This document shows positions 20,218 to 60,437 of a DNA stretch of 64,000 bases, in pieces (positions within the stretch are counted from its first letter, which is position 1; every line of letters begins with the position of its first letter). The DNA is from a virus. The notes beneath the pieces are model-generated. The model made no database searches, was not told where the DNA came from, and worked only from the letters and a program-made list of their open reading frames with translations. The stretch lies in IMG/VR virus record IMGVR_UViG_3300025229_000001; one strand, given 5' to 3'. The translations under genes and the position numbers were made by a program.

Positions 20218-20307
20218 CTCAATCCCTTTAACTGAGCCTTATGAGGTGCCACGGCAACCGGTAAGGTGCCGGCGTTCGGGTCGCGTCCCTAGCCGTGGCG
20301 TGAGGTG

Positions 20308-25075: not shown

Positions 25076-25170
25076 GATATTCCCTGTTAGTTAGTCCCTG
25101 TAATGGTGCCCGCGGAAGCACGACAGGGGGCGTGCGTGTCAGTTGCGCAACCTATCCGCGGGCTGACCGT

Positions 25171-37246: not shown

Positions 37247-37399
37247 TCAACTCTCGAGCGCACCACCAACAGCGAACGGCTCGAAGACATCGATCAGCCA
37301 CTCCGAATAGCCGGTAAGGGCGTGCGCGCATGCGAGGTGCCACGTTGCGGCCACCATCGGGCCAAAGGTGAGGATTGACTCCCAACCATCGAAAGTCAT
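37247..37399 (-). CDS. Small hypothetical protein (50 aa)
   Basis: ATGA overlap with GIY-YIG stop. Confidence 0.45.
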   Translation of the reverse strand: MTFDGWESILTFGPMVAATWHLACAHALTGYSEWLIDVFEPFAVGGALES

Positions 37400-38316
37400 G
37401 TCGCCTCTCGCTCCACGAATTCCCATCTGTATCCGTAAGCGCTTTTCCTGCGCCCGGCGCACACATGGCTCAGGTATGAAGACGTAGCCTTTGATATTCC
37501 CGAGTCTTTCAGCCAGATCACCGCATGCACCAGCGATTCAAACACCTTGCCGGTATCAACGATTCTGACGGGCTTTGCCCTTGCTGCGAATGATGCTGCA
37601 GCGGCTTGGGCCCTAGCTTCTGGTGATCGAGCGTTCATCGCCGCCGATAACTTCGCCCTGTGATCATCTGACAGGCGCTTGCCCATGCGGGCTGCGGACA
37701 ACTTAGCGCGCGTCTCTGCAGTCACAACCCGGTTCTTCAGCCGTTCAGACCTCCTGCGCCGCTCATCGGGAGATTGACCAAACAGTGTGCTCTTGGCGGA
37801 CAAGATTGCTTTGGTTTCGGCAGATAGAGGTTTCCCCCGCCTTGCTTGCGCGGACCTCGCTATCGCCTCGGTCGTCGGCGACTTTCCTTTGCGAATGGCA
37901 GATGCTTTCTCCCGCCACTCCGGAGTATCCCGGATCGCCCTCATAGCCGCCCTGGCAGCCGCGGACATCTTTCTGCCAGTCAAGGCAGCAGAAATCTTGT
38001 GGCATGTCGCCTCAGGGCGTTTCATGCCGAGATGACTGCCCGCAGTCTTGCAGATGTTGTAGCCCGGCACCAAGCAATCAATAGCTAGCTGCTCATACAT
38101 GAGCAAATCAGGCTTTCCGCAGATCAACAGGATCTCAAACCGCAACCCTGACTCGCCATGCTTTTTAAATGCCGATTGCAGATGCGGGTTATGGTGCGAC
38201 CCTACTCGAAGGTGATGAAGATGGACATGCCACCTTCTTCTGATATTAACCGCCGAGCCTACGTATTGCTTCCCAGACGCGCTGGTAATGGCATAAATGC
38301 CAGCAACGTTATTCAT
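37396..38316 (-). CDS. GIY-YIG homing endonuclease with NUMOD3 repeats and NUMOD1-like C-terminus
   Basis: GIY...YVGS..NIRRRW..H; repeated SxExRAKLS; YGYRWEF. Confidence 0.9.
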   Translation of the reverse strand: MNNVAGIYAITSASGKQYVGSAVNIRRRWHVHLHHLRVGSHHNPHLQSAFKKHGESGLRFEILLICGKPDLLMYEQLAIDCLVPGYNICKTAGSHLGMKRPEATCHKISAALTGRKMSAAARAAMRAIRDTPEWREKASAIRKGKSPTTEAIARSAQARRGKPLSAETKAILSAKSTLFGQSPDERRRRSERLKNRVVTAETRAKLSAARMGKRLSDDHRAKLSAAMNARSPEARAQAAAASFAARAKPVRIVDTGKVFESLVHAVIWLKDSGISKATSSYLSHVCAGRRKSAYGYRWEFVEREAT

Positions 38317-42651: not shown

Positions 42652-42937
42652 CGCAGTCAATCCCCCGGTTCATGCTCTGCATCCATTCTTCGTCGGCTTT
42701 CCGATAAGCCTTCCGAATCGCCTCATCGGAATGCACGACTGCGGCGGCCACAAGAAAGATTGAAACGGGATATGTCACCATTGCCAACGCCCAGAGAGCC
42801 AGTTGCGCCGCCACATAAACGAACTCACCGACCGCTCGGCGGATCTCGTCCGGGAAGTCGCCACGGAAAGGACCGAGCGGGAGGCCGATTGCAGACTCAC
42901 GGAGTGCTGCGAGATATCTTTTCGTTTTATCGCTCAC
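42644..42937 (-). CDS. Hypothetical membrane protein
   Basis: Central hydrophobic segment; coupled ORF. Confidence 0.55.
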   Translation of the reverse strand: MSDKTKRYLAALRESAIGLPLGPFRGDFPDEIRRAVGEFVYVAAQLALWALAMVTYPVSIFLVAAAVVHSDEAIRKAYRKADEEWMQSMNRGIDCDE

Positions 42938-43437
42938 GCTGCCTCCCGATTCGACGTTTCGATATGTCTCGCGTCATCCTCGCGTGCAGCGTGTTCGGTC
43001 ATGCCGGCGCTGTCTGCGATCGTGTAATGCCGCGGATCTTTACTGGCGTGCAGCGCCTTCAATCGAGCGACGTGCGGCGTGAGCGCATCGAGCATCGCGT
43101 GATAGCCACCGGACACCATGCGATCGTCATTGAGCTTGCCTGCGGCCTCCGCGTCTACCAGGATGGCGAGGCAGGCGAGGGCGTGAGCAAAGTGGGGAAG
43201 GCCGCTGTCGACATCGTTGTCTTGCCCTTCGAACCACTTGTCAAGATGACGCTTGGCTGCGTCGACATAGATCGACGCGCGGACACCGGCAACGCGCCAG
43301 TTTGAGCGGCCATATTTGAGCATTCCGTCCAACAGACCCAGGGAGCCGAGCGCGGTTGCGGTCGCCGGCCACAGATGCAACGGCAATTTCCCGGACCCGA
43401 TAGCGTCTTTGGGATTGGTGTTCTTAAGTTCGCTCAC
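42934..43437 (-). CDS. dATP/dGTP diphosphohydrolase domain protein (DUF5664-like)
   Basis: NPKD...K.PLHL...GMLKYGRSNWR...AAKRH...D.DSGLPH.AHA.AC. Confidence 0.85.
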   Translation of the reverse strand: MSELKNTNPKDAIGSGKLPLHLWPATATALGSLGLLDGMLKYGRSNWRVAGVRASIYVDAAKRHLDKWFEGQDNDVDSGLPHFAHALACLAILVDAEAAGKLNDDRMVSGGYHAMLDALTPHVARLKALHASKDPRHYTIADSAGMTEHAAREDDARHIETSNREAA

Positions 43438-51517: not shown

Positions 51518-51588
51518 GCTTTTTGCTTTGCTAAATCAAATCTTTTTGCACGTTGATCAAAATGATTGATCCAATCATCATTCGCACC

Positions 51589-52347
51589 ATGAAAACGGTG
51601 AAAGAGATCCGGTTAGAGAACGCGCGCGCGCTCGCACACGAGGGCCCGGCTGAGTTCGCGCGTCGAATAGACAGCAGCACTCAGCAGGTCAATCAGTTCA
51701 TGGGCCCGTCGCCAACTCGCAACATCGGTGACAAGCTGGCGCGCCGTATCGAGGCAGCGTTTGGCAAGCCAGAAGGGTGGCTTGATGTCGAGCACATAAC
51801 AGGCAGCACCGATGCATCAATCAGCGGAACAAGGTCGGCCGTACTCGAGAAATTGCTGCCAGAAGGAAGCGGTAACTTAGTCACATGGGAGACCCCGGAA
51901 GATCTCGAGCCCGACGACGACCGGGTGTGGATCGACCGTTATGACTATCGTTACTCAGCGGGGAATGGCGTGATTCAATGGGAAGTACGACAAAAAAAGG
52001 CGCTGCCGTTTGATATCGGTTTCTTCAAGGCCCTTGGTGTGCGCCCACAGGATTGCAGGTTGGCCCAGGTTCACGGTCGGAGCATGGAGCCGTATCTGTT
52101 CAATAAAGACATGATGATGATTTGCATGGCGAAGAACCGGGTGAAGGACGGTCTGATTTACGCCGTGACGTTTGAGGATGAACCGCTGGTGAAGCAGATC
52201 TTTAAGGAGCCGGAAGGCGCTCTGAGGCTGCATTCCTACAATCCAGAGTTTCCCGACAAGATCATCGCCGCGGACCAGCTGGAAGGGCTTCAGATCGCCG
52301 GAGAGGTTGTGTATCGATCCGGTTCAGGCTTGGCCGGCGGTAATTAA
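51589..52347 (+). CDS. cI: CI repressor (HTH plus S24 autopeptidase)
   Basis: AEFARRID...RNIGDKLARRIE; VHGRSMEP (Ser) and LVKQI (Lys). Confidence 0.93.
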   Translation: MKTVKEIRLENARALAHEGPAEFARRIDSSTQQVNQFMGPSPTRNIGDKLARRIEAAFGKPEGWLDVEHITGSTDASISGTRSAVLEKLLPEGSGNLVTWETPEDLEPDDDRVWIDRYDYRYSAGNGVIQWEVRQKKALPFDIGFFKALGVRPQDCRLAQVHGRSMEPYLFNKDMMMICMAKNRVKDGLIYAVTFEDEPLVKQIFKEPEGALRLHSYNPEFPDKIIAADQLEGLQIAGEVVYRSGSGLAGGN

Positions 52348-52692: not shown

Positions 52693-52805
52693 AGCAAATC
52701 TTTATGATCTATTGAAGCTATGCAGGCGATAGAAATAATTGTTCGCTCCGAGCAAATCTTTTTGCGACATAGCGCTTGGCAAAGCAAATCAAATTGATCT
52801 ATGAT
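52693..52805 (+). promoter_or_regulatory. OL operators and pL promoter
   Basis: AGCAAATC-N5-GATCT at 52693 and 52783, degenerate copy at 52751; TTGGCA(52776)-N18-TATGAT(52800). Confidence 0.7.
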
Positions 52806-54040: not shown

Positions 54041-54229
54041 ATGAACTGGCACCAAGACATGACCGTCATCGACGGCAGACTGTACGCGGGCGACAGGTGG
54101 CTGGGCAATTTCACCTCGCACTCTGCGGCGATGGCGGGGATTCAGATCATGCGCAACGGCGGCAGCGATGTTGCTCTCGCCGAGGATGACCGCGATCTTC
54201 TCGCGGCGATTGATGCGGACGAGGTTTGA
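54041..54229 (+). CDS. Hypothetical protein (62 aa)
   Basis: GAGGAG RBS before MNWHQD. Confidence 0.65.
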   Translation: MNWHQDMTVIDGRLYAGDRWLGNFTSHSAAMAGIQIMRNGGSDVALAEDDRDLLAAIDADEV

Positions 54230-54251
54230 GGATACTTGCTGGAGATTTGTG

Positions 54252-54710
54252 ATGCACAGAATACCGCTAACCAGAGGAATGTTTGCGCTGGTCGATGACG
54301 AAGACTTTGATGCTTTGTCCAAATACAAATGGTGTGTGAGCCACTTTGGCTATGCCGTGCGGAACGAAGGCAGCAAACAAGTTCGAATGCACCGTCAGAT
54401 CATGGGCGTGGATGACAGATGGATTTTGGTCGATCACGTCAACATGAACAGGACGGATAACAGAAGGAAAAACCTTCGCACGTGCACCCAAGCAGAGAAT
54501 CTGAGGAATCGACCATCCGCCAACAATAAGTCTGGTTACAAAGGTGTGACGCACTGCGCGAAAACAGACAGTTGGTGCGCAAAGATTGGCTACAAGGGCC
54601 GGTGTAAGAACCTCGGGTATTACGAAACGGCACAAGAGGCGCACGAGGTCTATTGCCTGTGGGCCGACATGCTTCACGGCGAATTCGCACATTACGGGGT
54701 GAAATCATGA
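54252..54710 (+). CDS. HNH-AP2 homing endonuclease
   Basis: VDHVNMNRTDNRRKNLR; SGYKGV...LGYYETAQEAH...HGEFA. Confidence 0.9.
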   Translation: MHRIPLTRGMFALVDDEDFDALSKYKWCVSHFGYAVRNEGSKQVRMHRQIMGVDDRWILVDHVNMNRTDNRRKNLRTCTQAENLRNRPSANNKSGYKGVTHCAKTDSWCAKIGYKGRCKNLGYYETAQEAHEVYCLWADMLHGEFAHYGVKS

Positions 54711-54851: not shown

Positions 54852-55115
54852 ATGAAATACATCGTCACTCTGATCGACGGCAAAGAGTCGATCTTCGTGT
54901 TTCCCCGGAGCATCAATCACGACCGCTTTCATGAGTCGCTCGCAGCGATCCGATTCGGGTCGGAGCAGAACTGGCGGCGACACGTTCTTGGCGATCCCAG
55001 CGATTTGGTGTCAGCCGGGTTCGTGGACGACGGATTCTGTCACGGACATAGCGAGACGCTCCGCCTGAAGTCGCGAGGCGACGCTGACACGGTGCTGTTG
55101 AGGGGATGGAAATGA
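54852..55115 (+). CDS. Hypothetical protein
   Basis: Coupled ORF. Confidence 0.65.
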   Translation: MKYIVTLIDGKESIFVFPRSINHDRFHESLAAIRFGSEQNWRRHVLGDPSDLVSAGFVDDGFCHGHSETLRLKSRGDADTVLLRGWK

Positions 55116-55765
55116 CAACCGAACAGTGGGCGCCACCCCGAATCTGGCTACAACGCGAGCAAGGCGACCACGGCATGCACACGTGGTGTGAGGATTCCGT
55201 AGGCGACGGCGACATTATCGAGGAGGCTGAGTATGTGCGGGTTGACCGAAAGGCGACCGACACGAATGCCGCGTCTATCGCCTTCGAGAACTCCAAGTAT
55301 TACTTCACCGGCGAAAGCCCGGTGCGTCGCATCGAAGATTGGCGGGTGTGGATCGACGCGTGGAACGCCGCACTATCCGCCAGCCAGCCGAAAGCACTTC
55401 CGAATCTCGCCGTCTGGTACGGACCCATGCCCGAGAGCAACGGCAAAACGAACTGGACGGCGATCTTACACGCAGGCGAGATCTGGAAGGGAATCACGAT
55501 CGACCGCTCAGAATACCCAGATCGCGTGCGCTATGAAGCCGATCGCATGCGCTGGATGATCGGCGAACTGGATAAAGAACCGTCCACTCTAGACTACGAC
55601 GCGGACAAGCATAGCGGGTATGTGCCGCCTGTCAGCCAGCCGAAAGCGCTGACGGACGAAAAGATCGACGCCGCGATCCTTGAATGGTTTTCATACGAGC
55701 GCAATCAGGACGATTTTCGAGCCCGCATGCGCGCTGCAATCATTGCTGCCACGGAGGCCAAATGA
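55112..55765 (+). CDS. Modular hypothetical phage protein
   Basis: Contains VWYGPMPESNGKTNWTAILH...DRVRYEADR block; ATGA overlap. Confidence 0.65.
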   Translation: MTTEQWAPPRIWLQREQGDHGMHTWCEDSVGDGDIIEEAEYVRVDRKATDTNAASIAFENSKYYFTGESPVRRIEDWRVWIDAWNAALSASQPKALPNLAVWYGPMPESNGKTNWTAILHAGEIWKGITIDRSEYPDRVRYEADRMRWMIGELDKEPSTLDYDADKHSGYVPPVSQPKALTDEKIDAAILEWFSYERNQDDFRARMRAAIIAATEAK

Positions 55766-55881
55766 ACGCCTGGTATTTCGCTCTGGGCGCATGGTGTGGC
55801 GCCGTTACGGTGTGCATCCTGTTCATCCGCGGCGCCAATCCGCCGGAGCAAGTCGGTCAACGTAGGGAGTGTGAGCAATGA
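55762..55881 (+). CDS. Small membrane protein (39 aa)
   Basis: Hydrophobic N-terminus; ATGA overlaps on both sides. Confidence 0.5.
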   Translation: MNAWYFALGAWCGAVTVCILFIRGANPPEQVGQRRECEQ

Positions 55882-56123
55882 GCACAGTCGCAACGAGCAT
55901 TGAAGATCGGGTGAAGACGATTCTCACAGCACAGTTCGCCTTGGGCTGTGAGGTGCAGATGGACGCGCTGCTAGACGGCGAGTACGGCATGGACGACATA
56001 GACCTTCTGGAAATCACGATGTCAGTCGAAGACGAGTTCGGCATCGAGATCGACGACGACTCCATGAACGCGCTCAAAACGGCGCGGAACATTGTTGACT
56101 GTGTGACGGCGAGGGTGAGATGA
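55878..56123 (+). CDS. Acyl carrier protein-like, lacking the attachment Ser
   Basis: IEDRVKTIL...GMDDIDLLEITMSVEDEFGIEI...KTARNIVDCV aligns with the AcpP pattern; DSLD is DDID. Confidence 0.85.
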   Translation: MSTVATSIEDRVKTILTAQFALGCEVQMDALLDGEYGMDDIDLLEITMSVEDEFGIEIDDDSMNALKTARNIVDCVTARVR

Positions 56124-56251
56124 AAACCGCACTAGACGACTGGATCGAATTCACCCGTGCATCGATTGACGAGCAGTTGGCGGAGCAGCGGGCAAGGGAT
56201 GAGGCCGCATGGTTGCGGTTTCGAGCGGCGGCGTTTGGGCCGCTGGACTGA
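56120..56251 (+). CDS. Small hypothetical protein (43 aa)
   Basis: Not in ORF track; ATGA overlap with ACP-like stop. Confidence 0.5.
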   Translation: MKTALDDWIEFTRASIDEQLAEQRARDEAAWLRFRAAAFGPLD

Positions 56252-57597: not shown

Positions 57598-57788
57598 CCC
57601 AGCATTACGACAACGCCATCCACATGATGGAAGCGCAAGGCGGCTCTTTCGTTCAGTCATTGGCCCACTGCTACCTGATGGCCGATCCAGTCAACAAAAC
57701 AAAGCTTCGCGACACGTTCGCCGGTTACTTCGAAAACTACGAGCACCGGTTTGATCTGTGGAAGCAACAACAGAGGGAAGCAGCATGA
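57594..57788 (+). CDS. Hypothetical protein
   Basis: GGSFVQSLAHCY..AD..N pattern; ATGA overlap. Confidence 0.6.
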   Translation: MTQHYDNAIHMMEAQGGSFVQSLAHCYLMADPVNKTKLRDTFAGYFENYEHRFDLWKQQQREAA

Positions 57789-58837
57789 GCACAGCACTTT
57801 CAGTACGCCAGGAATTCGGCGCACAAGAGACGACCAACGCACTGGTCGAAACCGCCTCGACGGCCATTGCGGCCAAGGCGAAGGCAATGGTTGAAGCCCG
57901 GTACGTGATGGCGATGCGCCAGCCGCGTAACTGGGATCAGGTTCGGCAAGATCTGATGAGCGAATGCAAGCGCCCATCCTTTGCACACAACAAGAGCGCC
58001 TACTACCGCAAGCCGATCGGCCAAGGCGTAGAGGGCCTGGGAATTCGCTTCGTGGAAGTCGCGTTGCGTTGCATGAAGAACGTTCTGGTCGAGACGTCCA
58101 TGACCTTCGAGGACGACGCGAAAGAGATTCATTGCGTCAGCGTAACGGACCTCGAATCGAATCTGACCTATCCGCTGGATGTGCGGGTGTCGAAGACGGT
58201 CGAGCGCTCGAAGCCGGCAGACGATGGCTCGTATATCTCGGTCCGAAAGAATAGCTACGGGAAGATGGTCTACACCGTTCCGGCCAACGATGACGACTTG
58301 CTCAACAAGCGCGGCGCCCTGATTTCCAAAGCTGTACGGACGCTTGGTCTGCGGATTATTCCGGGCGATCTACAGGACGAAGCAGAGGAAATCATCAAGG
58401 CGGTCCGAATGAACGAAGCCGCCCGCGATCCGGGAGCGGAACGGAAGCGCATCGCCGATGCATTCGCTGAAATCGGCGTGAAAGTCGAAGACCTAACGAA
58501 GTATCTTGGCCACGCGCTTGATACGTGCTCGCCCGCAGAACTGGTAGATCTGCGCGGCATCTATGGCGCGATCAAGGACGGCGAGGCCACCTGGAAGCAG
58601 GTTGTCGAAAACAAGGCCGAGCAGGGCGGGGAGAGCAGCGAAAGCGGCTCAACGAGCGCCAAGGTGATTCCGGTCTGCACTGCCGATGACTTCGAGAAAA
58701 AGTCACCTGAATGGCGAAAGCTGATCGTCGATAAGAAAAAGACGCCCGCCGAGTTGGTCAAGATGATCGAGACGAAGACCAAACTCAGCGAAGAACAGAA
58801 ACTGACGCTGGACTCATGGAGCCACGAGAATGACTGA
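57785..58837 (+). CDS. Probable ssDNA-annealing recombinase
   Basis: AYYRKPIG..VEGLGIRFVEVA; directly upstream of YqaJ exonuclease; family inferred from context. Confidence 0.6.
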   Translation: MSTALSVRQEFGAQETTNALVETASTAIAAKAKAMVEARYVMAMRQPRNWDQVRQDLMSECKRPSFAHNKSAYYRKPIGQGVEGLGIRFVEVALRCMKNVLVETSMTFEDDAKEIHCVSVTDLESNLTYPLDVRVSKTVERSKPADDGSYISVRKNSYGKMVYTVPANDDDLLNKRGALISKAVRTLGLRIIPGDLQDEAEEIIKAVRMNEAARDPGAERKRIADAFAEIGVKVEDLTKYLGHALDTCSPAELVDLRGIYGAIKDGEATWKQVVENKAEQGGESSESGSTSAKVIPVCTADDFEKKSPEWRKLIVDKKKTPAELVKMIETKTKLSEEQKLTLDSWSHEND

Positions 58838-60437
58838 CCGCATAACTCACGACCTGATTCAAGGCTCGGATGAATGGGCACAGTTCCGCCTGACGAAGTT
58901 CGGCGCCAGCGAGGCCGCTGCCATGCTCGGAATCTCGACGAAGGCCAAGCGGACAGAGTTGCTGCACATGAAGCACACCGGCAACCCGAAGGAGTTCAGC
59001 GAGTGGGTTCAAAAGAACATTCTGGACTACGGTCACGAAGTAGAAGCGCTGGCCCGGCCCATCATCGAAGAACTGATCGGGCAGGACTTGTATCCGGTGA
59101 CGCGTTCGCTGGGCGTGCTTTCGGCATCGTGCGACGGCCTAACGCTCGACGACGAGATTGCATTCGAGCATAAGCAGTGGAATGCAGCGCTAGCTGAATC
59201 GGTGCGCAATAGGGTGCTGCCGGAAGAGTATCAGCCGCAGTGCCAGCAAATCATGCTGGTGGCCGGCGCGCAGAAGGTCATTTTCGTTTGCTCAGACGGC
59301 ACGCGAGACAACATGGAGTACATGGAGGTCTACCCGGATCAGGCTTGGTTCGAGCGGATCATCGACGGCTGGGTGCAGTTTGAAAAAGACCTGGCCGCCT
59401 ACGTGCCGCAAGTCATCGAAGAAAAGCCGATCGGCCACACGCCTGAAACGCTTCCTGCGCTGCACATCGAACTCAGCGGCGTTGTCAAGCATAGCAACCT
59501 CCGCGATTTCAAGGCTCACGCACTGGCCGTCTTCGCAGGTATCAACCGTGAACTGACGACCGACCAGCATTTCGCCGACGCCGAGAAGACCGTCAAGTGG
59601 TGCGAAGACGTCGAATCACGACTCAAAGCGGCGAAGGAGCACGCGCTGAGCCAGACGCAGAGCATCGACGAATTGTTCAAGACCATCGACGACATCGGTG
59701 CCGAGGCTCGCCGCGTCCGGTTGGATCTCGACAAACTGGTGACGAAGCGCAAGACCGAAGTCAAGGATTCGATCATCGCCGGCGGCCGCAAGAAATTTGC
59801 TGATCACTGCGCGGCACTCGTGGCAGACCTAGGCTTGGGCGACGTTCGGCTTGAAGTGGCGCCGCCCGATTTCGTCGGCGCAGCGAAGAACAAACGGACG
59901 ATGGCAAGCCTGCATGATGCGATCGACACAGCGCTGTCGAACGGCAAGATTGCCGCCGATGCTGCTGCCCGCGATCTACGCGCGAAGCTCGACTGGTACA
60001 AGCCGCACGGCGAAGCTCATGGCTTCCTGTTCCGCGATCTGCAAACACTGATCCAGAAGCCGACTGAGGACTTCCAGTTGGCCGTCACGACTCGAATCGA
60101 GCTTCACAAGCAGGCAGAAGCGGAGAAGGTAAAGGCGGCGGCGCCGCCCACACCCGCAGTCGTGGCGCCAGCACCGATCGCCACGAAGCCAGTTCAGGTC
60201 GCAGCGCCTTGGATTGGCACTACGCCGACCGGCGCTCCGACACTGCGTCTTGGCCAGATTAACGAACGGCTGGCGCCGATCGCTCTGACAGTCGAAGGCT
60301 TAGCGGCCCTCGGATTCAAGCACGCAGCCACCGACAAGGCCGCCAAGTTGTACCACGAGGAAGTCTTCCCGAAGATTTGCGCAGCACTGATCGAGCACAT
60401 CGATACGGCGGCTCGCGGGCTTGCTCACGCAGCCTAA
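58830..60437 (+). CDS. YqaJ/lambda-exonuclease family protein with long helical C-terminus
   Basis: QGSDEW..FR...GASEAA, SASCDGL, FEHK, QCQQIM. Confidence 0.9.
   Translation: MTDRITHDLIQGSDEWAQFRLTKFGASEAAAMLGISTKAKRTELLHMKHTGNPKEFSEWVQKNILDYGHEVEALARPIIEELIGQDLYPVTRSLGVLSASCDGLTLDDEIAFEHKQWNAALAESVRNRVLPEEYQPQCQQIMLVAGAQKVIFVCSDGTRDNMEYMEVYPDQAWFERIIDGWVQFEKDLAAYVPQVIEEKPIGHTPETLPALHIELSGVVKHSNLRDFKAHALAVFAGINRELTTDQHFADAEKTVKWCEDVESRLKAAKEHALSQTQSIDELFKTIDDIGAEARRVRLDLDKLVTKRKTEVKDSIIAGGRKKFADHCAALVADLGLGDVRLEVAPPDFVGAAKNKRTMASLHDAIDTALSNGKIAADAAARDLRAKLDWYKPHGEAHGFLFRDLQTLIQKPTEDFQLAVTTRIELHKQAEAEKVKAAAPPTPAVVAPAPIATKPVQVAAPWIGTTPTGAPTLRLGQINERLAPIALTVEGLAALGFKHAATDKAAKLYHEEVFPKICAALIEHIDTAARGLAHAA

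Follow-up and report, generated by a model that had tools for sequence, protein, structure and literature searches.

An acyl carrier protein homologue with aspartate at the prosthetic-group attachment site, encoded by an optional and exchangeable phage cassette

The window analyzed here, a stretch of 64,000 nucleotides, takes in 64 kb of a stand-alone virus contig of 68.5 kb, complete according to CheckV, and has a lambdoid layout. On the plus strand, an S24-peptidase (CI/LexA-type) repressor-like gene (51553–52347; PF00717, 6e-18) lies upstream of a sigma-70-like promoter candidate of a pL-like operon (TTGGCA-18-TATGAT, 52776–52805, a consensus match only), from which an array of small plus-strand genes extends to a recombination pair at 57758–60437. 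The pair comprises a 359-aa RecT-like protein (phrog_3657) and a 535-aa YqaJ/RecE-like exonuclease, assigned by Pfam and PHROG, and is 71% identical in DNA to the Ralstonia phages Firinga and Hennie. Inside the array, 1.6 kb upstream of the pair, is the plus-strand open reading frame (ORF) at 55878–56123, which encodes an 81-aa homologue of acyl carrier protein (ACP). The minus strand carries the replication genes (O-like, DnaB), a methylase, and NinG. The ACP gene belongs to an early, pL-like operon; the earlier note on this DNA had called it expressed early, of which the location stands, while early expression itself is suggested by position only. The virus is a temperate phage, likely with Burkholderiales hosts. 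Its DNA occurs in root metagenomes, which hold it in full and may be its source, and the sole RNA run holds a small share of it. A Pfam scan of 29 ORFs of the window detected no phosphopantetheinyl transferase or lipid enzyme.

Several other features of the window were recorded. The Rfam int-alpA RNA (RF02996) matched the minus strand at 20236–20299 and 25096–25162 (44.7 and 42 bits, above the gathering score), in both cases inside a block of long minus-strand ORFs upstream of 37000. A 166-aa protein encoded in the NinG region (42934–43437, minus strand) contains the N-terminal domain of dATP/dGTP diphosphohydrolase (PF18909, 1.7e-23). Within the early operon, an HNH-AP2 endonuclease gene (54168–54710; PHROG 99, 3.4e-35) precedes the ACP gene by four genes, and a GIY-YIG/NUMOD3 homing-type endonuclease gene (37396–38316) is found on the other arm.

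The ACP ORF has a Shine-Dalgarno-like AGGGAG site (55864–55869) 8 nt 5′ of its ATG and overlaps both of its neighbors through ATGA sequences. At 55878–55881, its start codon overlaps the stop codon of an ORF for a 39-aa single-pass membrane peptide (55762–55881, plus strand) with a juxtamembrane F-I-R-G-A motif, for which HMM matches were found beside ACPs with Ser (S-type) and with Asp (D-type) at the attachment site; at 56120–56123, its stop codon overlaps the ATG of an ORF for a 43-aa predicted helical peptide (56120–56251, plus strand), defined by alignment and HMM matches and invariant at W8, R13, A14, D17, D27, A30, R33, and F34. The membrane-peptide gene is in turn ATGA-coupled to a plus-strand gene for a 219-aa protein of no family (55106–55765), which had no match in Pfam, PHROG, or PADLOC. 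Codon 40 of the ACP ORF, a GAC at 55995–55997, encodes an Asp (Asp40) in the context G-M-D-D-I-D-L-L-E; the closest Ser codons differ from it at two positions, and the TCG used by Ser-bearing sister genes differs at three.

Homology of the 81-aa protein to ACP was confirmed, with a resemblance far beyond chance. The protein scored 34 bits against PF00550 (PP-binding; E 3.6e-8), above the superfamily gathering score of 20.8, and matched PHROG 5934, "acyl carrier protein" (1.4e-12), as well as ACP chains in the PDB (phmmer, best E 3.9e-9). An AlphaFold (AF2) model built from 87 sequences had a pLDDT of 87.4 and placed predicted helices at residues 8–20, 40–54, 60–64, and 69–80, which is the classical four-helix ACP arrangement. 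When the model was compared by Foldseek with the AcpP structures of E. coli and other bacteria, TM-scores ranged from 0.80 to 0.87. In sequence alignments, D39-D40-I41-D42 of the phage protein fell on D35-S36-L37-D38 of AcpP, so that Asp40, the first residue of helix II in the model, occupies the position of Ser36. The earlier note had described an intact, coupled ORF with an AcpP-like pattern, an Asp in place of the phosphopantetheine Ser, and a GAC codon at least two changes from any Ser codon; our results agree with it on each of these points.

The residues by which AcpP docks on its partners are preserved in the phage protein. D39, D42, E45, M48, and E51–F54 (E51-D52-E53-F54) align with D35, D38, E41, M44, and E47–F50 of AcpP and are invariant or nearly so in D-type and S-type proteins alike; D39, D42, E45, E51, D52, and E53 give the protein an AcpP-like acidic recognition helix II, and an EDEFGIEI stretch of the D-type protein is identical to Burkholderiales AcpP. 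The conserved Ser of the D-S-L motif, expected of a holo-ACP, is absent. Thus, the docking helix is intact and the attachment site is lost. Outside this helix the likeness to housekeeping ACP is weaker. The Asp40 protein scored 45.1 bits against TIGR00517, the AcpP equivalog model, and 36.4 bits against NF002149, below the respective cut-offs of 106 and 70.45; with the curated AcpP models of NCBI, an S-type sister scored 71.4 bits and a host AcpP scored 134.7 bits. Since the phage clade, S- and D-types together, is 35–37% identical to host AcpP and the D-type protein reaches only 45 of the 106 bits, any mimicry of host ACP would be limited to helix II.

We examined how well the Asp is conserved among the closest relatives of the protein. 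The immediate clade, drawn from metagenomes and two NCBI genome assemblies, comprises ten distinct proteins that are 57–94% identical to the product of 55878–56123; all ten have Asp at the attachment site, and the ORF is intact in each. For the eight D-type genes with available DNA, pairwise dN/dS was 0.1–0.35 with dS from 0.6 to above 2, and the Asp codon was GAC in three and GAT in five; the Ser codon of the S-type sisters was TCG in all. The presence of Asp in ten members, the use of both Asp codons, and the low dN/dS argue that the protein is functional and that the Asp is selected. The D-type proteins also share a co-varying signature, consisting of an invariant E35, D59 in place of the usual Pro, and N64 in place of an aromatic residue. 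No other Ser or Thr with a conserved D-S-L-like context was found in the D-type alignment: S49 and S62 vary across the clade, and only T47 and T68 are conserved, both being conserved or common in S-type proteins and AcpP as well. We conclude that the D-type gene is not decaying and that modification at another residue is unlikely.

Phage ACPs are common, and beyond the immediate clade Ser predominates. Among 64 viral ACP loci found by search patterns that left out the attachment-site position, the residue at the site was Ser in 59, Asp in three, Arg in one, and Leu in one; all 80 genomic matches kept from the scan have Ser, nearly all of them being housekeeping AcpPs of 29–40% identity. The earlier note had proposed that Asp conservation be checked in phage homologues, with a majority of Ser, or modification elsewhere, counting against its reading. 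Ser is indeed the rule for phage ACPs at large and is not found in the immediate clade, where Asp is universal and under purifying selection; the alternative of a displaced modification site loses ground with the absence of a second D-S-L-like context. A close relative occurred in only two of the 401 Burkholderiaceae species genomes searched, and the Asp40 protein belongs among the ACPs of temperate phages with Burkholderiales-type hosts, with relatives in prophages of Burkholderia cepacia and Paraburkholderia phymatum.

In a tree built without the Ser column, the phage ACP clade was set apart from host AcpP at 100/97 support and the Asp40 protein fell in a D-type clade of nine at 94/82. The tree also contained a further acidic variant (L156), an Asp-type protein (L176) grouped with the Ser-type protein P0018 (91/85), and a pair formed by P0025 (Asp) and P0120 (Glu) at 99/98. 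Given the branches with good support, no fewer than three changes are required, and a single origin appeared in 0% of the bootstrap trees; an AU test of one origin for all acidic variants gave p = 0.067, short of formal rejection. On this evidence, Ser has probably been replaced by Asp or Glu at least three times within one phage ACP family. All 13 Ser-less family members in the tree carry Asp or Glu, a pattern that speaks for selection of a negative charge or of a carboxylate that caps the helix and not for simple loss. A library clustered at 50% identity held 19 Asp and 6 Glu types among 126 aligned single-domain sequences, query included, a list that is biased by the query's own Asp and was therefore not used as a frequency; nine of the ten D/E-type representatives looked up were one-member clusters, mostly on contigs of less than 10 kb.

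The Asp-type ACP at L176:2236–2490 has the motif R-F-D-D-L-D and groups with a Ser-type subgroup that reads G-F-D-S-L-D, and hence looks like an independent change from Ser to Asp. In the early region of another phage (L166:2508–4125), the gene for the Glu-type P0120 follows thymidylate synthase (ThyA) and DHFR genes and lies upstream of a KTSC gene and a RecT-like/RecE-like pair of the same kind as that in the window.

Comparison of near-identical phages revealed that the spot is variable and that the ACP gene there behaves as a cassette, both optional and exchangeable. The viral contig L174 matches the window at 97–99% identity on either side of the ACP gene and is missing precisely this ORF: its membrane-peptide gene runs straight into the 43-aa gene through the same ATGA overlap (L174:2150–2800 against window 55601–56250), which indicates that the whole gene was gained or lost precisely at its start and stop overlaps. 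In a second contig, L006, flanks that are 87–97% identical to the window over 55821–55940 and 56118–56178 enclose a Ser-type core that is only 30–70% identical to it. Phages that are nearly isogenic thus carry an Asp allele, a Ser allele, or no ACP gene. A variable accessory slot of the early operon is consistent with a role in host takeover or counter-defence. Because Ser-bearing alleles share the slot and are exchanged by recombination, the function of the slot may not need the prosthetic group, or the two types may differ in role.

Phage ACPs, down to one that is only 31% identical (L117), are often flanked by the membrane peptide and the 43-aa peptide, and this co-occurrence had suggested a complex of all three proteins. 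We downgraded this candidate, given the precise junction in L174 and the finding that ten of 16 informative loci hold the membrane-peptide and 43-aa pair with no ACP. In a search from the 43-aa peptide, the membrane peptide adjoined in 14 of 17 loci and an ACP in only six, and many phage ACPs have no 43-aa gene; the pair therefore appears to be a stable unit whose junction serves as an insertion spot for accessory genes. A predicted complex of the ACP-like protein with the 43-aa peptide, run without controls, scored 0.00, which speaks neither for nor against binding, and look-ups of the 43-aa and 39-aa peptides in the ESM Atlas returned nothing usable.

Related arrangements were seen at other loci. 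The pair, with a membrane peptide of 39–50 aa (F-I-[RQ]-G-A) and often ATGA-coupled, occurs in L169, L173–L175, L179, L181, and L183–L185, and at other loci the insertion junction is taken by small genes for a 40-aa membrane peptide or an 81-aa lipoprotein. In three phages with S- and D-type ACPs, the ACP gene is directly followed by the gene for the lipoprotein (L004:5252–5497, L094:4240–4485, L156:4255–4500) that has a signal peptide plus Cys and a conserved C-terminal ...GVVCSGWLKGATVRF. The upstream proteins are of very unequal length (window 55106–55765; L001:5631–5894; L006:4556–4882; L111:1944–2468) and have in common a C-terminal block centered on S-Q-P-K-A-L-T-D; with the L111 protein, an N-terminal block of W-C-E-D-S-V-G-D-G-D and W-Y-G-P-M-P-E-S-N-G-K-T-N-W is shared in addition. 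There was no family match.

How might an ACP without its Ser act? Phosphopantetheinyl transferases act on the hydroxyl of Ser (PMC3896788; PMC13343975), so the Asp form would be fixed in an apo-like state, as a permanently apo-like paralogue of phage ACP that carries no acyl chain. With the fold and the docking helix kept, competitive binding to an ACP-receiving surface is the simplest mechanism: the Asp40 protein, the product of an optional accessory gene for host interaction within the early pL-like operon, would most likely act by binding alone, docking on the basic ACP-binding surface of a host (possibly phage) protein and competing there with host ACP. Its carboxylate probably caps helix II as Ser does and probably also supplies the negative charge normally given by the phosphodiester of holo-ACP. 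That the protein stays unmodified, that it works by binding, and which target it has are our inferences, and we regard the decoy reading as plausible but unproven. We give an even chance to the view that the protein is an unloadable mimic of ACP and works by binding one of the host's ACP clients.

In published E. coli work, the known partners of ACP differ in whether they accept the apo form. SpoT, one of the partners that the earlier note had proposed to be titrated, is not bound by apo-ACP (PMC3896788) and is therefore unlikely as a target, and IscS, whose binding requires Ser36, is not bound by S36T ACP (PMC13343975). MukB, also named there, is bound by apo-AcpP and stimulated equally by the apo- and holo-forms (PMC8602292). 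For the third proposal, ACP-dependent defence proteins, the case is weakened in that no ACP-like component was found in the PADLOC defence models, which gave no match at E ≤ 1 for the ACP, an S-type sister, or the three neighboring proteins. MukBEF is probably absent from Burkholderiales, the likely hosts, so that MukB, sound as a binding partner of apo-ACP, is probably irrelevant to this phage. With SpoT and MukB set aside on these grounds, lipid-synthesis acyltransferases or AcpS remain as candidates. E. coli apo-ACP inhibits glycerol-3-phosphate acyltransferase and stops growth, according to work as cited in PMC3896788, which makes this acyltransferase one candidate target; the other is AcpS, for which the Asp40 protein may be a dead-end substrate analogue, with the carboxylate placed where the Ser hydroxyl would meet Mg2+ and the phosphate of CoA.

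The same cassette could be read without host mimicry, with the whole phage clade serving as a small, acidic, cofactor-independent structural protein or adaptor for phage proteins, perhaps together with the neighboring membrane peptide and 43-aa peptide, and the change from Ser to Asp being a near-neutral N-cap swap. Helix N-termini are capped well by Asp, Ser, or Thr, and the model places the attachment site at the first residue of helix II; S- and D-type cores sit in one cassette between near-identical flanks, and the two small peptides accompany even the distant ACP of L117. However, the small-peptide pair and the ACP are so often apart, as in the ten ACP-less loci, in L174, and among the many ACPs with no 43-aa gene, that their linkage looks like a shared insertion spot. 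The retention of Ser in 59 of 64 phage ACPs and of TCG in all sisters suggests that the prosthetic group matters in S-type proteins, and the D-type has a co-varying signature of its own. We therefore hold the adaptor account to be possible but doubtful. An acidic mimic of nucleic acid, a decoy of the Ocr, ArdA, or Gam type that blocks a host nuclease or restriction, might seem to be indicated by the net charge of −12 and pI of 4.05, by an accessory position in the early operon upstream of the RecT-like/RecE-like genes, and by a presence that differs from one near-identical phage to another, a typical trait of counter-defence genes. But the charge is the same in every ACP, host AcpP included (net −12), and is thus inherited and not a new feature of the D-type, in which, by net charge, no DNA-like charge pattern has been added; moreover, matches in Pfam, PHROG, the PDB, and Foldseek were to ACPs only, with none to known DNA mimics, which leaves this account improbable.

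Loss of the defining Ser, the dispensability of a gene that a near-identical phage does without, and an AcpP-model score below that of the S-type sister (45 against 71 bits) could each be expected of a decaying or neutral ACP remnant, yet a remnant would hardly keep its ORF intact in ten of ten clade members, a dN/dS of 0.1–0.35 at saturating dS, an Asp that persists through synonymous turnover (GAC/GAT), and translational coupling, and we consider decay very improbable. Least credible to us, and with nothing found in its favor, is the alternative that the protein remains a carrier and is modified elsewhere, as the earlier note had considered, or at the Asp itself by an unknown enzyme: the remaining Ser and Thr residues offer no D-S-L-like context, S49 and S62 vary, T47 and T68 also occur in S-type proteins and AcpP, and the known phosphopantetheinyl transferases use a Ser hydroxyl (PMC3896788). 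Returning to the ACP mimic, a bolder form of it, which we think rather unlikely as a whole, would have phage ACPs repeatedly converted into unloadable, phosphate-mimicking decoys that jam host ACP clients, with the Ser, Asp, and null alleles under diversifying selection; candidate clients would be AcpS, a membrane-lipid or lipid A acyltransferase, or an ACP-dependent defence protein or toxin. If this were true, carrier-protein mimicry would be a recurrent phage strategy and the three alleles would represent alternative states of host manipulation.

Few hub proteins in bacteria have as many connections as ACP, and annotation routinely labels the ACP genes of phages "auxiliary metabolic genes" for fatty-acid synthesis. 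In the literature, the function of phage ACPs has been called unclear (PMC5463345), and they have been treated as metabolic helpers (PMC11705849); our literature search found no paper on Ser-less phage ACPs, ACP mimics, or anti-defence ACPs. A non-carrying version that is conserved, selected, and repeatedly evolved suggests that some phage ACPs, at least, are binding proteins and not metabolic helpers. At this locus, Asp-type, Ser-type, and no gene occur in almost identical flanks, a natural allelic series on which the question can be tested directly and which could bring to light an unrecognized host target or another means of inhibiting ACP-dependent pathways.

Among known systems, AcpP (PF00550; TIGR00517) resembles the D-type protein in its four-helix fold, acidic helix II, size, and charge, with 35–37% identity for the Burkholderiales proteins; the D-type protein differs in being phage-encoded and optional, in having Asp for Ser36, and in lacking a fab gene context. 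Nearest to it are the Ser-bearing ACPs of Burkholderiales-type temperate phages (P0007 of L006; P0008 of a B. cepacia prophage; L010 of Paraburkholderia phymatum), which belong to the same clade at 48–56% identity and share the early-operon slot between the membrane-peptide and 43-aa genes, but have D-S-L-D (TCG), Pro59, and an aromatic residue 64 where the D-type has D-D-[LI]-D, D59, and N64, together with E35. E. coli apo-ACP, in the work cited in PMC3896788, likewise has no prosthetic group and acts by binding; it is a transient host precursor, whereas the D-type is a diverged protein of phages in which an acidic residue at the site is genetically fixed. In our alignment, ORF97 of Vibrio phage ICP1 has retained the Ser. 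The ACPs of Ackermannviridae (Salmonella phage Maynard gp88, Serratia phage Kevin) have Glu at the Ser position, confirmed in these two members, and a conserved helix II, but they are 25–31% identical, are 90–108 aa long, come from large virulent phages, and fall outside the clade, so that their loss of Ser is independent. New here, relative to these systems, are a separate temperate-phage lineage of Ser-less ACPs nested among Ser-bearing sisters, a probable repeated change from Ser to an acidic residue in one family, and a natural series of Asp, Ser, and null alleles.
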